A stretch of DNA of 56,591 nucleotides, the filler included, from Nitrospirae bacterium CG2_30_53_67 (GTDB lineage: Bacteria > CG2-30-53-67): assembly GCA_001873285.1 (NCBI GenBank). It is 4 parts of 4 records of this genome, joined end to end, with 100 filler letters (N's around TTAATTAATTAA, not from the genome) between each part and the next. Parts side by side here need not be neighbours in the genome. Positions count along the whole stretch, not along the records: positions 21,027 to 40,159 come from MNYV01000148.1; 3 more parts are not named here. The stretch is one strand, 5' to 3'. Position numbers: made by a program. Shown piece after piece: positions 27,001 through 33,000 of this stretch (positions are counted from its first letter, which is position 1; every line of letters begins with the position of its first letter).

Positions 27001-30000
27001 TTAACCTTGTCACCGGGAAGGATCTTGATGTAATGAAGGCGCATCTTCCCGGAGATGTGGGCCAGGACCTTGTGCCCGTTTTCCAGCTCGACTCTAAACA
27101 TGGCGTTCGGAAGCGGCTCCAGGACCGTCCCTTCAACTTCTATCGCATTTTCCTTGGCCATATTTCCTTTATATTCCGTCAGGCCGCCTGGCTCAGAATC
27201 CTCGGCCCCTGATTCAAGACGGCAATGGAATGTTCAAAATGAGCCGAAAGGCTCCGGTCCGATGTCACCGTGGTCCAGTTGTCCTCCAAAATCGTCACAT
27301 CCCAATGTCCCATATTCACCATCGGCTCGATGGCCAGGACCATCCCCTCTTTCAATCTCGGTCCCCTGTTGGGGAACCCGAAATTCGGGATCTGGGGTTC
27401 TTCGTGCAGGCTGCGCCCGATCCCATGGCCCACAAAGGCCCTGACCACGGAATAGGAATGACTCTCAACATATTCCTGAATGACGCTGGATATATCAAAG
27501 AGCCGATTCTTGACCGTGGCCTTTTGAATCCCCCGGCACAGGGCCTCCTCGGTCACCCGCATCAAACGGGCCGCATCCTCGGAAACGGCGCCGACCGGGT
27601 AGGTCCGCGCTGAATCACCGTAGTATCCGTCTAAAACCACCCCGACGTCTATACTGATCAGATCCCCTTCCTTGAGAACCTGTTTTTTTGAAGGGATCCC
27701 ATGGACCACAACCTCATTGACCGAAGTGCACAGAGTCGCCGGATACCCTTTGTATCCTTTGAATGCCGGCTTAGCCCCGTTCTTCCCGATGAATTCTTCC
27801 GCAATACGGTCCATCTCCAAGGTGGTCATCCCGGGCCGGGCCCATTCCCTCAACATCTCCAATAGATGGGCCACGATCTGGTTGGCCTCGTACAGCTTCT
27901 CCACCTCATCGGGATGCTTGAGAATGATCATCCCTGCTTCTCAATCACCGCGCGGATCCGGCCGAAGATATCCTCAATCCCTCCGGTCCCATGGATCTCC
28001 ACCAGAACGCCGTCCTTCCTGTAGTACTGAATCAGGGGTTCGGTCTGCTTGTTGTAGACGTTAAGACGGTTCTTGATGGTCTCTTCCTTGTCATCGTCCC
28101 GCTGGAACAAGGACCCGCCGCATTGGTCGCAGATTCCATCCTTGGCGGGTTTTTTGAAAAATACATGGAACCCGGCGCCGCATTCCTTGCACGTTCTCCG
28201 GCCGGTCAACCTTTTGATCAGCTCCGGATTGGGGACCACGATCGACAAGACATAGTCAATGGACTGTCCCATATTCTTCAGGGCCTTTTTGAGCTCATCG
28301 GCCTGGGGGACGGTCCTCGGAAATCCGTCGAGGACGTACCCCTTGGCGCAATCGCTGCTCTTAAGCCTCTCACGGATAATCCCCACCACGATGTGGTCAG
28401 GCGCCAGCGCCCCTTTGTCCATGTAGGACTTTGCCTCTTTGCCCAGGGAGGTCTTGTTCTTCACGGCCTCTCGGAGAATGTCGCCGGTTGATATCTGTGG
28501 TATGCCGTATTTTTCAACCAGCTTCTTGGCCTGCGTACCCTTCCCTGCCCCCGGAGGCCCTAAAAGTATCATTCGCATTTTCTGTGCCCTTCCTTTCTCT
28601 TGTTTCTTATTTTCGGCTCCCTCTCTTCATTCACGTTTGAAGTCAGCGCCCGCTCCGTCCATGAATCCTCCCCTTCTTCAAAAAGCCGTCATATTGGCGC
28701 TGCAGAAGATGGGATTCGATCTGTCTCAAGGTATCGAGCGCCACACCCACAACAATGAGAAGGGACGTCCCCCCGAAGTAGAAGGGGATGTTCAGCTCCT
28801 GGATCAAAAACATCGGAAGCACACAGACCGCCGAAAGATAAAGGGCCCCGACAAAGGTGATCCTGCTCAGGACTTTGTCAAGGTAGTCCGATGTATTCTT
28901 CCCAGGCCGGAGTCCCGGGATAAACCCCCCCTGCTTCTTCATGTTTTCGGCCACGTCCACGGGATTGAACATCACCGCCGTATAAAAAAAAGTAAAAAAA
29001 ATGATAAATCCTACATAGAGGATCATATAAACCAGACTCCCCGGGCTCAGACTCCCGGCCACCGCCTGCATCCAGGGATGATGAATCACCTGGGCGATGG
29101 TCGCCGGGAAGAGGATGATCGAAGAGGCGAAGATCGGCGGGATCACGCCCGCGGTATTGATCTTCAACGGGATATGGGTATCCGTGCCGCCATAGGCCTT
29201 GCGGCCGACCACCCGCCGCGCATACTGGACCGGCACCTTTCTATGCCCCTGTTCCATAAAGATGATGGCCCCTGTCACCAAAACGATCAGCAGCAGGATG
29301 ACCAGAACCACATAAGGCTGCATGATCCCTCCCCGGACCAAGGTCGCGGTTTGGGCCGCGGCAGAGGGCATGGCCGCCACAATCCCTGCAAAGATGATCA
29401 GGGAGATCCCGTTCCCGATCCCCTTCTCGGTGATCTGTTCACCGAGCCACATGATGAAGGCCGTTCCCGCCACCAGGGTGATCACGGTGAAGATCAGGTA
29501 TCCGGGTCCGGGGTGGATCACGATGGGGGCGCCGCCCGGACTCGTGGTGCTCTGAAGGCCGACGGCAATGCCGGCGCCCTGTATGATGCTGAGAAGGATC
29601 GTTCCATACCGGGTGTACTGCGTGATCTTTTTCCGTCCCGCCGCCCCTTCCTTGGCCAACTGCTCAAGACTCGGCACCACCGATGTCAGGAGCTGCAGGA
29701 TGATCGAGGCGCTGATGTACGGCATGATCCCCAAGGCAAAGACCGTCATACGGCTCAGCGCCCCGCCGGAGAACATGCTCACGAATCCGAGAATTCCCCC
29801 CTCCTGAGACTGGAAGAACTCGGAGAGGGCCTTTGAATCTATTCCCGGGATCGGGACATGACACCCTACCCTGTAAATCGCCAGAAACCCGAGTGTGAAA
29901 AGGATCCTTCTCTTTAATTCAGGAACCTTGAAAATGTTCTGCAGGCTCTCTAACAACCGGATCTCCGATATAATAAATTGTGGTTCTTCTCCCATTTAGT

Positions 30001-33000
30001 GGGTAAAAAGGGTTCGAGGGTTGAAGATCCATAGGGTTCCAGGGGTCGAGGGGTCAAGGGTTCAAGTGAGATACTGAAACGCAAGCAAAATTTTCAGAGA
30101 TAAATACTGGAACCCTTGACCCCTAGGACCCTCGGCCCCTTATGTTTTTAGCACTTCACTTGACCCCTGGAATCCTTGACCCCTTGACCCCTGATGTCTT
30201 CACCCACTCTTTTGGAGATGAACCTTATTTTATGATCTCGGCCGTTCCGCCGGCTGCACGGATCTTCTCGGCCGCCTTTTTGCTGAATTTGTGCGCCTTC
30301 ACCACCATGGGACGATGGAGCTCACCGGCGCCGAGAATCTTCAGCCCGGCACGCATTTGTTTGACCACCCCTTTATCGCGCAGGATCTCAGGATCCACTT
30401 GATCCGTTCCTTCGAGGAGATCCAGCCGGGAAAGGTTCAGGATGGTATATTCCTTGCGGAAGATGTTGGTGAACCCCCGCTTGGGGAGCCTCCTCTGCAA
30501 TGGCATCTGCCCTCCCTCGAAGCCGGCCTTTTTACTGCCGCCTGAACGGGCGTTCTGTCCCTTGTGCCCTCGGGTCGATGTCCCGCCATGCCCGGAGGCG
30601 TTCCCTCTGCCGATCCTTTTGCGCTTCTTGGTGGACCCCTTCGGGGGCTTTAAATCATGTAATCTCATCTTCCATCCTTACTCAATCGTTGACGGCTTCA
30701 TCCATCACATTTTCCACATCCACCAGGTGAGGTATCTTATTGACCATTCCCCATATTTCCGGAGTATCCTTGCGAATCACCCACTGCTGTGTCCTTTTCA
30801 GACCCAGGCCGCGGATGATTTCCTTGTGTTTTTTGGGCTTCCCGATCGGGCTTCTTTTCAGTGTGATCTTTAACTGTCCCATGAGTCCATCAACCTTTCG
30901 TATCCACGGCCCGGTCCACGCTAAGCGGTCAATTCGTCCACAGTCTTGCCTCTGAGCTTTGCAATTTGTTCCACATCTCTCAATTTGAGCAGTCCATCCA
31001 TGACCGCGCGTACAGCATTGTAAGGATTGCTGGACCCGACGCATTTGGTCAGGATATCCTGGACACCGACCACTTCCAAAACGGCCCGCACACCCCCGCC
31101 GGCGATCAGGCCCGTCCCTTCGGAAGCCGGTTTCATGACCACTTCTCCGGCCCCATAATGCCCGATCACCTGATGAGGAATCGTCTTCGAGCGAAGGGAG
31201 ACCGTCACCATCTTTTTCTTGGCCTCCTCGATCCCTTTCCGGATGGCTTCCGGGACCTCATTGGCCTTGCCTTTGCCGTATCCCACGCTTCCTTTACCGT
31301 CACCGACAACCACAAGGGCGCTGAAACTGAAGCGTCTTCCGCCTTTTACGACTTTGGCCACACGGTTGATATGAACGATTTTATCGATCAGTTCGCCGGA
31401 TTGGTCATTCTTTTTCTCCAAAGAGTCCCTCCCTTTATTCATCATCCTCATTCCTTAGAATTTGAGCCCGGATTCCTTGGCGGCTTCGGCGAGAACCTTG
31501 ACACGCCCAAGAAATTTATAACCGCCGCGGTCAAAGACCACTTTCTTGATCCCTTTCTCCTGGGCCCGCCTTGCAATCTCCTGACCGACCCACTTCGCAG
31601 CTTCCTTTTTCCCGCCATCTACCTTCTGGTCCCGGAACACCGGATCCAAGGTAGATGCGCTTGCGATGGTATGGGAATGGATATCATCGATGACCTGCGC
31701 ATAGATATGCCGTGCGCTCCTGAAAACGGACAGTCTCGGACTTCCCTGAGCGCCGGACACCTTTTTCCGAACCCTCTGATGCCTTGCGATTCGGGCCACC
31801 CTCTTGGTATTTTTCTCCACGGTTCTTCTTCCCCTTTATGATCAGGCCTACTTGGTGGTCTTTCCGGCCTTTCTGATGATTCTTTCCTTCTGATACTTGA
31901 TCCCTTTGCCCTTATAGGGTTCCGGCCGGCGAAGGGCGCGGATGTTTGCCGCGGTCTGCCCCACGTCCTCCTTGTTGATCCCGGAAATGGTGATGATACT
32001 CTTCTCCACCAAGGCTTCCACCCCTTCCAGAAGCGGGAATAGAATGGAATGGGAATATCCGAGATTGAACTCCACGGACCGTCCCTTAACCTGCGCCTTG
32101 TATCCCACGCCATTGATCTCCAGAATCTTGGAAAAACCGCTTGTCACACCATGGACCATGTTGGCGATCAGATTCCGAATCAACCCATGAAAGGCGCGAT
32201 GTTCTCTGGAATCCGATGCGCGGTGGACCAGGATCTTTCCTTCCTGGAGTTCAACCGAGATATCCGGCGGGATTTTCCTCAAAAGGGTCCCTTTCGGCCC
32301 CTTGATCTCCAAGGTCGAATCCTTGAGCGCCGCCTTCACGCCTTTGGGCAGAATCACCGGCAATTTTCCTACTCTCGACATCTCTTTTTCCTTTAACCGT
32401 TAAACCGGAGAACCGTCTTCACCCCCGGCCGTTACACCTTTTTAAGGCAGGGTTAACAGATCGGATCTCCTACCAGACGGCGCACAACACCTCTCCACCC
32501 ACATGTTCTTTCCTGCACTGCCGGTCCGTGATCACCCCTTTGGGCGTTGAGAGGATCGCCACGCCCAAGCCGTTCCTGATGTTCGGGATCTCATCCACCT
32601 TCACATAGACCCGCATCCCAGGCTTGCTGATCCTGTCGATTCCGTGGATGACGCTCTCTTTCCCTTCCGGTTTCTTTAAGCTGATTCGTATCGTCCCCTG
32701 AGGACTATCCTTTAAAACCTTGAAGTTCTTGATGAAGCCTTCTTCCTTCAGGATCTTCGAGAGCGCAATCTTGATCTCCGAAGCCGGAACGTCCGTCTCT
32801 TGTTTTTGCGCCTTGACGGCATTCCGAATACGTGTGAGCATATCGGCTATGGGATCGGTCATGGACATGCATGGACTCCTGTAATCATATTCCTTAAAAA
32901 TATTCCTACCAACTTGATTTCGTCACCCCGGGGATATCCCCTCTCAGGGCCAGCTGGCGAAAACAGATTCTGCAGAGCTCGAACCGGTTGATATACCCTC

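Follow-up and report, generated by a model that had tools for sequence, protein, structure and literature searches.

Introduction

What is the inverted-repeat element lodged between rplO and secY in the bacterium CG2_30_53_67 (Nitrospirae), what moved it there, and why do its relatives lie so regularly in the direction of the genes around them? A survey of the genome had read it as a strictly polar, two-ended (X and Y) element of the intervening-sequence (IVS) type known from 23S rRNA, with no evident mover. We followed the element family, termed XY here, through a window of 56,591 nt (four contig parts joined end to end), the rest of the genome, related genomes and other phyla. The rplO-secY repeat is a shortened form of a small transposable cassette whose copies elsewhere bear a gene of the S23p family.

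Four-helix-bundle proteins of the S23p/TIGR02436 family abound and are related to Avd, a protein of diversity-generating retroelements (DGR). We know of no function established for them.

Genes were called with our own codon-usage caller, and the positions of start codons are approximate. Members of the same family, loci from one genome and orthologous loci (e.g. L053 and L057) are non-independent.

The rplO-secY locus

The inverted-repeat element reported between the two genes was recovered as a copy of 243 bp with its X end at the rplO TAA and its Y end toward secY (Table 1). The name rplO is taken from the survey and is presumably right, being consistent with the gene order of ribosomal-protein operons. 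The longest secY ORF extends to an ATG at 29995, within the Y end. Direct reading of the interior (30027..30179) found no S23p remnant in this copy. The spacer had been described as empty in relatives; it is short or empty in G003, G004 and G006, but in the sister genome G001 it holds a different repeat array of 126 nt.

Table 1. Features of the XY family and flanking genes in the window
Feature	Position	Strand	Evidence
XY element copy, 243 bp, X to Y	29982..30224	-	End profiles 30223-30180 (X, 54.6 bits) and 30026-29983 (Y, 52.4 bits)
X terminus, ISL3-like inverted repeat, abutting rplO stop	30180..30224	-	X consensus vs TIRs of intact ISL3-family IS, 19-24/29 columns
Interior: G-rich decamer arm (GGGGTCAAGG type), central loop, C-rich decamer arm	30027..30179	-	Direct sequence reading and fold
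Y terminus, ISL3-like inverted repeat, 25 nt upstream of probable secY TTG start	29982..30026	-	
rplO, upstream gene, 147 aa ORF, TAA stop directly before X end	30225..30668	-	
secY, downstream gene, probable start TTG at 29956	28643..29956	-	Junction aligned with G001, G003, G004, G006
Second complete XY copy, first contig of window (C140 7762-8050)	7762..8050	-	X 58.5 bits, Y 34.1 bits
Contig-start fragment of longer XY copy: C-terminal half of S23p gene, then Y end	2..253	+	PF05635 positions 52-105
Lone X end, last contig of window	50656..50697	+	53.5 bits

The second complete copy of the window also lies in sense (X upstream, Y downstream), with co-directional genes on both sides. The S23p remnant in the contig-start fragment scores 45.7 bits with PF05635 (cut-off 33.8) and 50.6 bits with TIGR02436.

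Family size and ends

With the rplO-secY spacer as query, BLAST returned 449 HSPs, and end profiles run across the genome found 135 X ends and 125 Y ends with zero cross-assignment, in keeping with the survey's description of two unlike ends. The family is abundant, as claimed, but at 206 loci, 39,398 bases and 1.7% of the assembly it is smaller than the earlier figures of 279 loci and 2.4%. Its intergenic character holds (189 of the 206 loci are mostly intergenic). Copies range from 67 to 494 bp and contain no transposase gene; in the longest, S23p remnants or small nested repeats are all that is present. No promoter, terminator or other asymmetric signal was found in the element.

Mobility, with 8-bp AT-rich target duplications made on insertion, was likewise borne out. 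Among 56 copies with well-defined termini, the duplication is exact in 13 and matches at 7 of 8 positions in 12 more, where shuffled pairings lead one to expect 0.13 and 1.03, respectively. The target consensus is NNAAWTWN, with A at position 3 in 24 of 25 duplications, A at position 4 in 20 and T at position 6 in 19.

ISL3-family termini and the likely mover

The sister genome carries a truncated ISL3 transposase (PF01610, 133 bits, with HTH_Tnp_ISL3) that is preceded by an inverted repeat resembling the X and Y ends. By a strict pattern, XY-like termini bound 8 of 80 close relatives of this transposase; six of these eight insertion sequences measure 1368-1378 bp, seven have exact 8-bp duplications, and their transposases match PF01610, PF13542 and PF14690. 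Intact copies of ∼1.37 kb with 8-bp duplications are present in other Nitrospirota. The X and Y consensus sequences are identical to the terminal inverted repeats (TIRs) of the eight transposase-bearing elements at 19-24 of 29 columns, and to one another at 21 of 28 columns, against a mean of 13.7 and a maximum of 20 in 2000 shuffles. Members of the ISL3 family are described as producing 8-bp repeats and perhaps favouring AT-rich DNA (PMC3469429).

Because the termini match ISL3-family inverted repeats, the element is probably moved in trans by a DDE transposase of that family, and the picture of an orphan IVS-type element does not stand. PF01610 has no match in this genome, which does not establish that a transposase is absent, since the assembly is broken at repeats, includes no contigs below 3.1 kb and has XY ends beside 58 of its 366 contig ends. 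Current mobility in this genome is therefore conjectural. The survey's report of neither an intact S23p gene nor a transposase with these ends thus holds for this fragmented assembly only; both exist in other genomes.

An S23p cassette as parent

Eleven PF05635 matches lie inside XY copies, and all ten remnants that could be assessed read from X to Y. Relatives of the S23p remnant, 59-79% identical, occur in several phyla. Among the best 80 such loci, both XY termini are present at 18, with duplications matching at 8 of 8 positions in five and at 7 of 8 in another five. Six of the 18 span 477-535 bp and have the ORF intact. The intact cassette gene encodes 123 aa, occurs in Desulfobacterota, Nitrospirota and others, and is enclosed by the same decamer arms; that of locus L022 scores 138 bits with TIGR02436 (cut-off 24) and also matches PF05635. 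Judged by a median dN/dS of 0.09 (computed over the 36 pairs, out of 190, whose dS is under 3), the cassette gene is under purifying selection. Further loci, class B, consist of the arms only or the arms plus the ORF, without XY termini.

Descent from a unit carrying S23p, read X to Y, had been proposed from the remnants; both their order and the intact cassettes elsewhere agree with it. The XY element is a deletion derivative of the ∼490-bp S23p cassette.

Orientation relative to genes

Between co-directional genes 57 copies lie in sense and 5 in antisense. Residence in operon spacers, mostly in sense, is therefore confirmed, and the polarity given earlier as strict (41 of 41) is strong but not strict. 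Nor is sense obligatory, given the five antisense copies, four of which have 7/8 or 8/8 duplications. The sister genome has 11 sense and 2 antisense copies; across phyla, counting Pfam-supported neighbours only, there are 15 sense, 0 antisense, 5 divergent and 0 convergent.

Orientation flips with gene strand inside contigs C76 (14630-14988 minus, 19917-20041 plus) and C161, as had been noted, and likewise inside C167 (5477-5627 minus, 8501-8666 plus), each copy being sense to its local genes. Strand-specific insertion is known in other transposon families, and orientation could track replication, the link to genes being only apparent through their co-orientation with replication. Such opposite-strand sense copies a few kb apart make this very improbable, as do a sense share of 92%, above the usual gene-strand bias, and the lack of orientation (9 versus 8) in a 120-nt element nested in the same loci.

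An asymmetric target sequence, such as a stop codon with an A-rich tail, might also set orientation. The consensus is slightly asymmetric (A at position 4 in 20/25, T at position 5 in 11/25), and TAA or TGA stands at positions 1-3 or 2-4 in 16 of the 25 listed duplications (our own count). A weight matrix from the duplications, built on polar insertions and thus favouring this explanation, still gives an expected ratio of no more than 1.15:1 when applied to 752 empty short spacers between co-directional genes, stop codons included, and we give the idea hardly any credence.

Two patterns bear on selection. Where the residual spacer is <120 nt the ratio of sense to antisense is 46:1, and where it is ≥120 nt it is 11:4 (Fisher p = 0.010). 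Copies whose duplication matches at 7 or more of 8 positions comprise 19 sense and 4 antisense, and those at 6 or fewer comprise 25 sense and 0 antisense (Fisher p = 0.046). Each of the four well-defined antisense copies is flanked by a fresh duplication. Both tests, picked after the data had been seen, depend on five antisense copies, and subfamily and age are confounded because three of the five are members of a single subfamily whose Y end has a 16-nt insertion. The patterns of age and spacer length agree with selection acting against antisense copies where the junction is co-transcribed. The 19:4 ratio among fresh duplications can mean either that antisense copies are purged at once or that insertion itself is biased.

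The latter reading, in which transcription or translation of the target orients insertion (e.g. by asymmetric capture on transcribed DNA) and new copies are already sense, draws on that 19:4 ratio, on X ends that cluster close to stop codons, at about 10 nt or less (median 10), and on the duplicated target, where AAAT in the element's orientation is far commoner than ATTT although the two are equally common on the sense strand of spacers (698 versus 677). Yet a purely mechanistic bias predicts neither its weakening in long spacers (11:4) nor antisense copies that are all young, instant loss of harmful insertions would yield the same young-copy bias, and the accessible literature gave no precedent for ISL3. 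We rate oriented insertion as unlikely.

The explanation that we consider probable is a non-autonomous ISL3-type MITE, internally deleted from the S23p cassette, whose antisense copies are lost by selection. The full mobile insertion cassette of ∼490 bp would comprise an ISL3 TIR, a G-rich arm of GGGGTCAAGG-type decamers, the 123-codon gene for an Avd-like four-helix-bundle protein (S23p/TIGR02436), a C-rich arm and, at the far end, the other inverted repeat, and internal deletion would turn it into the XY MITE. As the ends and duplications suggest, an ISL3-family DDE transposase in trans may cut and paste, or copy, the element into AT-rich 8-bp targets. Insertions would arrive in both orientations, and antisense copies in co-transcribed junctions would then be removed by selection, as the age and spacer-length patterns suggest; old copies in tight spacers would consequently be nearly all sense, with X at the upstream stop and Y before the downstream start. 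The long predicted hairpin would be transcribed together with the operon.

RNA fold and the rRNA intervening sequences

The survey's own proposal was an mRNA counterpart of the rRNA IVS, in which sense orientation, needed for recognition of the hairpin and its excision by RNase III or its neutralization, sets the polarity. The cargo does belong to S23p, a family familiar from the intervening sequences of 23S rRNA (PMC4990558), and the arms enclose the ORF exactly, like a stem. As reported, the X to Y strand is the more stable as RNA, in 69 of 82 copies and by a mean of 8.7 kcal/mol, although the asymmetry does not amount to 82 independent observations, because it is inherited from a common ancestor, and it could stem from a transcription-linked C-to-T bias. 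The rplO-secY copy folds at -100.4 kcal/mol (z -5.15), but its reverse complement also forms a long hairpin (-95.4). The 23S rRNA of this genome is without a large intervening sequence (C157:10915-13894, 2980 nt versus 2925 model positions), XY copies sit between protein-coding genes and not in an rRNA helix, no RNA contig spans or stops at a junction tellingly, and antisense copies are present. We hold this proposal doubtful as the source of the polarity; it agrees with the selection reading and could underlie it.

A broader version of the idea makes the S23p gene and decamer arms themselves a selfish operon-dwelling module that would correspond, in mRNA, to the IVS of rRNA. It would ride polycistronic transcripts in sense, be neutralized or excised via its G-U-rich hairpin and produce a pentamer, Avd-like and binding RNA or DNA, to aid its persistence or spread; the ISL3 termini would be only one captured vehicle, and class B copies would move by another route. 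We give this a small chance. If it were true, the orientation rule would stem from a need at the RNA level, and a role as cargo of mobile elements would explain the large TIGR02436 family.

Comparison with known systems

We found no prior description of the element in the literature, and searches on the protein family gave only a paper on the Coxiella intervening sequence and a DGR survey. IS-derived MITEs and mobile insertion cassettes share with XY the IS-like TIRs, 8-bp AT-rich duplications, lack of their own transposase, high copy number, intergenic location, spreading deletion variants and nesting. XY differs in its parent, which carries a conserved non-transposase gene within long decamer arms, and in its ∼92% co-orientation with transcription; the words 'orientation' and 'ISL3' do not occur in a review of prokaryotic MITEs (PMC10969869). 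The family also sits chiefly at junctions within operons, a kind of spacer that insertion sequences are described as generally avoiding (PMC13548323).

The 23S intervening sequences of Leptospira, Coxiella and others have in common with XY the PF05635/TIGR02436 protein family, an ORF bordered by complementary sequences (here in 11 remnants, with intact ORFs in other phyla) and carriage in sense inside a host transcript. They are described as sporadic and horizontally spread, with the ORF decaying in some hosts (PMC4990558), and XY is likewise. In contrast, XY lies between protein-coding genes and has transposon termini and target duplications.

Correia elements of Neisseria and ERIC elements of enterobacteria are also inverted-repeat elements transcribed with their neighbours. 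RNase III cleaves Correia transcripts at the repeats, ERIC copies located at the 3′ ends of genes alter mRNA stability, and for neither does the accessible text of the review report an orientation bias comparable to that of XY (PMC10969869). XY differs from both in its ends, target duplications and link to S23p.

Avd, the DGR accessory protein, has a related four-helix-bundle fold (PF22296 bAvd match, E = 8e-7), and PF05635 is said to resemble it (PMC10053308). With the Avd model NF033474 the cargo scores 36.3 bits, below the equivalog cut-off of 80. No reverse transcriptase was noticed beside the copies examined, although no search was directed at one.

One S23p clade is thus the conserved cargo of an operon-dwelling transposable cassette spreading across phyla, and the function of S23p is for that reason now testable. 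With over 100 insertions in essential operons, such as that for ribosomal proteins, and an orientation bias of ∼12:1 that target sequence does not explain, the family forms a natural test bed for how a hairpin insert becomes harmless to polycistronic mRNA in one orientation only. It also matters to assembly practice, for it is at copies of XY that the 58 contig ends mentioned above break off.

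The element between rplO and secY

The XY element, an inverted-repeat element with two unlike ends (X and Y), is real and abundant in its source genome (G000). The copy in the rplO–secY spacer runs from an X tip through a G-rich arm built of GGGGTCAAGG-type decamers, then a loop and a C-rich arm, to a Y tip, the two tips being imperfect inverted repeats. Its predicted RNA fold is −100.4 kcal/mol (z −5.15) in sense, that is, X to Y along transcription of the flanking genes, and −95.4 kcal/mol (z −4.95) in antisense. A simple promoter and terminator scan had been reported to find nothing, and we agree: between 29800 and 30400 there is no promoter-like site, and the two weak terminator-like sites within the arm do not exceed those of shuffled sequence. 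Rfam at gathering thresholds returned only a single tRNA in the whole window and nothing in this element. A CUCC-type stretch in the X tip (30214–30224) would pair with a Shine–Dalgarno-like GGGAG stretch in the Y tip (29982–29993); the X tip may also resemble the anti-Shine–Dalgarno end of 16S rRNA.

Features of the window (positions along the joined stretch)
Feature	Position	Strand	Remarks
rplO ORF	30668–30225	-	stop codon TAA
XY element in rplO–secY spacer	30224–29982	-	243 bp; begins at the base after the rplO TAA
secY start codon TTG	29956	-	GGAGA ribosome-binding site and TTG, 25 bases past the element end; start marked by comparison with four relatives
Second complete XY copy	7762–8050		profile matches
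Contig-start XY fragment with S23p remnant	2–253		profile matches
Lone X end	50656–50697		profile match

The same spacer is empty in three relatives (G003, G004 and G006), where rplO and secY lie 12–15 nt apart. The sister species G001 had been counted as empty as well; under the genome numbering used here, its spacer is occupied by a different, 126-nt array of 9-mers of GTTTAAAC / GCTTGAAC type, whose 5′ part is short and inverted (G001:C146:9833–9976, locus L184). This array is a separate insertion, placed directly after the same rplO stop codon.

Family size and orientation

A BLAST search of the G000 assembly (183 contigs, 2.37 Mb) with the spacer gave 449 HSPs. Profiles of 45 nt for the X and Y ends, built from ten near-full-length copies, matched 135 X ends and 125 Y ends, none of them claimed by both profiles, and these form 90 X-to-Y pairs (86 without nested duplicates) of 67–494 bp. 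Together with nested modules the family covers 206 loci and 39,398 bases (1.7%), 189 of the loci being mostly intergenic. Because an XY end lies within 400 nt of 58 of the 366 contig ends, the assembly evidently breaks at XY repeats, so the count of copies is too low and the longest forms are under-represented. A hairpin of the same decamer-arm design (G-rich arm, loop, C-rich arm) without ISL3-like tips occupies 39520–39620 of the window, in a 140-nt spacer of a row of ribosomal-protein genes.

Orientation in G000 was scored against our own codon-usage gene calls (2055 genes). For loci in other phyla, longest-ORF calls were dropped as unreliable (a visible stop codon in locus L027 conflicts with them) in favour of Pfam-supported neighbours, the Pfam scan covering 300 of 306 candidate ORFs at 80 related loci.

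Orientation of XY-type elements relative to flanking genes
Set	Sense	Antisense	Divergent	Convergent	Remarks
G000, complete copies	57	5	6	4	last two columns before de-duplication
G001, 19 X ends	11	2	1	3	two undecided; reversed-pattern control 0
Other phyla, Pfam-supported neighbours on both sides	15	0	5	0	some loci same-genome or orthologous, not all independent

The survey's finding described the element as strictly polar. The bias is strong, not strict: the genes on either side of all five antisense copies in G000 score well, and G001 has antisense copies too. Lone ends in G000 lean the same way, X pointing toward a stop codon in 35 cases and toward a start in 8, Y toward a start in 27 and toward a stop in 9. 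In other phyla a gene start lies on the Y side in 37 cases vs 5 and a stop on the X side in 30 vs 8, counts in which, again, not every locus is independent. Such co-orientation is unremarkable for an ordinary gene and remarkable for a transposon able to land either way.

Mobility and the probable mover

The 8-bp target duplications reported earlier hold up. Of the 56 copies whose termini are well defined, 13 have the same 8 bases outside X as outside Y and 12 agree at seven of eight positions, where shuffled pairings lead one to expect 0.13 and 1.03, respectively. The target consensus is AT-rich (NNAAWTWN). ISL3 members make 8-bp direct repeats and perhaps prefer AT-rich DNA, according to PMC3469429.

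The Pfam ISL3 transposase model has matches in five relatives and none in the G000 assembly, which breaks at XY repeats. In front of a truncated ISL3 transposase in G001 (PF01610, 133 bits; HTH_Tnp_ISL3) lies an inverted repeat with a match to the X and Y tips. We compared 80 close relatives of this transposase (72–85% identity, many from Nitrospirota): by a strict pattern, 8 have XY-like termini on both sides, six of these loci measuring 1368–1378 bp and seven having exact 8-bp duplications. Against the X and Y consensus the IS repeats agree in 19–24 of 29 aligned columns, on a par with X against Y (21 of 28); shuffled controls average 13.7, never exceeding 20 in 2000 trials. Who moves the element had been left open; from these ISL3-like termini and 8-bp duplications, the likeliest candidate, and one with good support, is now an ISL3-family transposase acting in trans.

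The XY element works like an IS-derived MITE or mobile insertion cassette, with ISL3-like termini, 8-bp target duplications and no transposase gene of its own. Correia and ERIC elements are likewise hairpins carried in mRNAs (PMC10969869). Insertion sequences in general avoid intra-operonic spacers, according to one survey (PMC13548323), whereas the XY family lives there.

The S23p cassette

The PF05635 model for S23p, a four-helix-bundle protein family, has 14 matches in G000: three free-standing genes without XY ends and 11 short remnants within XY copies. As previously claimed, the remnants read X to Y, in all 10 that could be assessed. Where a copy bears such a remnant, its ORF begins within the final decamer of the X arm and extends into the first decamer of the Y arm, where it stops.

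The 66-aa remnant at the window start has relatives at 59–79% identity among the best 80 of 194 loci, in Nitrospirota, Desulfobacterota, Zixibacteria, Ignavibacteria and other phyla. Twenty of these best 80 hold an uninterrupted ORF of 123 codons, which scores 138 bits against TIGR02436 (cut-off 24), also matches PF05635 and stays under the cut-off of the model for Avd, the DGR accessory protein. Over those 36 of 190 pairs in which dS is unsaturated, its median dN/dS is 0.09, so this ORF encodes a functional protein.

Both XY-type termini are present at 18 of the best 80 S23p loci, five of them with 8/8 and another five with 7/8 duplications; six of the 18 are 477–535 bp long with an intact ORF. 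The shorter ones have deletion junctions common to copies within one genome, which indicates that deleted forms of the cassette transpose there too. Other S23p loci consist of the ORF and decamer arms, without ISL3-like tips, directly 3′ of the upstream stop codon; around these no consistent target duplication was found, with one possible case (L043). There is good support for an S23p-carrying cassette as the parent of the XY element, and the G000 family is the miniature, ORF-less end of this widespread cassette.

S23p-bearing 23S intervening sequences share the cargo family and the stem-plus-ORF layout (PMC4990558). The XY element lies outside the location that defines them, and the 23S rRNA gene of G000 has no large insert. 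Full-text searches of the literature and term look-ups in MITE papers, all on main texts, gave no prior account of transposons with S23p genes as cargo, nor of a comparable orientation rule.

None of the intact S23p genes (contigs C67 and C169 of G000; G001; the relative G007) is flanked by XY ends. The C67 gene (G000:C67:7881–8195, outside the window; locus L017 1340–1726; 129 aa, PF05635 133 bits) has another inverted repeat on its borders and is contained entirely, and out of frame, within a 536-aa open frame without a Pfam match, so that it may have inserted into a coding gene. A Thermodesulfobacteriota MAG has tandem S23p genes upstream of a histidine-kinase gene (locus L076, 549–965 and 1332–1695).

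Causes of the orientation bias

Several causes of the polarity were considered and rejected. Replication direction is at odds with contigs C76, C167 and C161, where sense copies a few kb from one another occupy opposite strands, each tracking its local genes. Target sequence does not account for the bias: AAAT occurs 698 times and ATTT 677 times on the sense strand of empty spacers, and a weight matrix derived from the polar insertions themselves yields a ratio of only 1.15:1 across 752 empty short spacers, stop codons included. Neither an artefact of gene calling nor a property common to small hairpin inserts fits a nested 120-nt element that is unoriented in the same loci (9 vs 8).

The ratio of sense to antisense is 46:1 where the residual spacer is below 120 nt and 11:4 in longer spacers (Fisher p = 0.010), and, among copies with well-defined termini, 19:4 with duplications of 7/8 or 8/8 and 25:0 with decayed ones (p = 0.046); both tests depend on the five antisense copies and were formulated with the data already in view. 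A Y-tip variant with a 16-nt insertion has 11 copies in G000 (C107, C129, C137, C39, C45, C56, C60, C126, C159 and C172), and its paired complete copies are three sense and three antisense, against 54:2 for all others. Since three of the five antisense copies thus belong to this subfamily, and all three bear 7/8 or 8/8 duplications, age and subfamily are confounded. From the spacer and decay ratios, antisense insertions happen, yet seem to be short-lived, most of all where junctions are tight and presumably co-transcribed. The polarity is best read as selection in such junctions; young copies already stand at 19:4, which calls either for harmful insertions to be lost at once or for some insertion bias.

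The greater predicted stability of X-to-Y RNA over its complement, noted in the survey, was confirmed in 69 of 82 copies (mean 8.7 kcal/mol). This asymmetry is inherited by descent, and could reflect selection on the sense RNA or a transcription-linked mutation bias.

RNA evidence and nested repeats

In four metatranscriptome runs, pieces of at least 99% identity cover secY (29301–29951), rplO (30445–30605) and the X arm (30111–30188), the last assignable to any XY copy; no RNA contig in these runs bridges a junction. Among DNA runs, nineteen contain at least half of the words sampled from this stretch. Depths are per contig, and contigs are unreliable for RNA ends. A 43-nt X-arm contig (30146–30188) has a word depth of 21.7 vs about 3 on the flanking genes, and a sequencing adapter follows immediately at 30188; any copy of the family could have given rise to such a short RNA fragment, and the signal is too weak to interpret.

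Long XY copies in G000 have been invaded by other small repeats (for example C127:6084–6424, C159:2453–2796 and C39:8235–8728), including a perfect palindrome of about 31 nt, a 120-nt module that occurs either way round, and one further module. The genome is host to several nested miniature elements.
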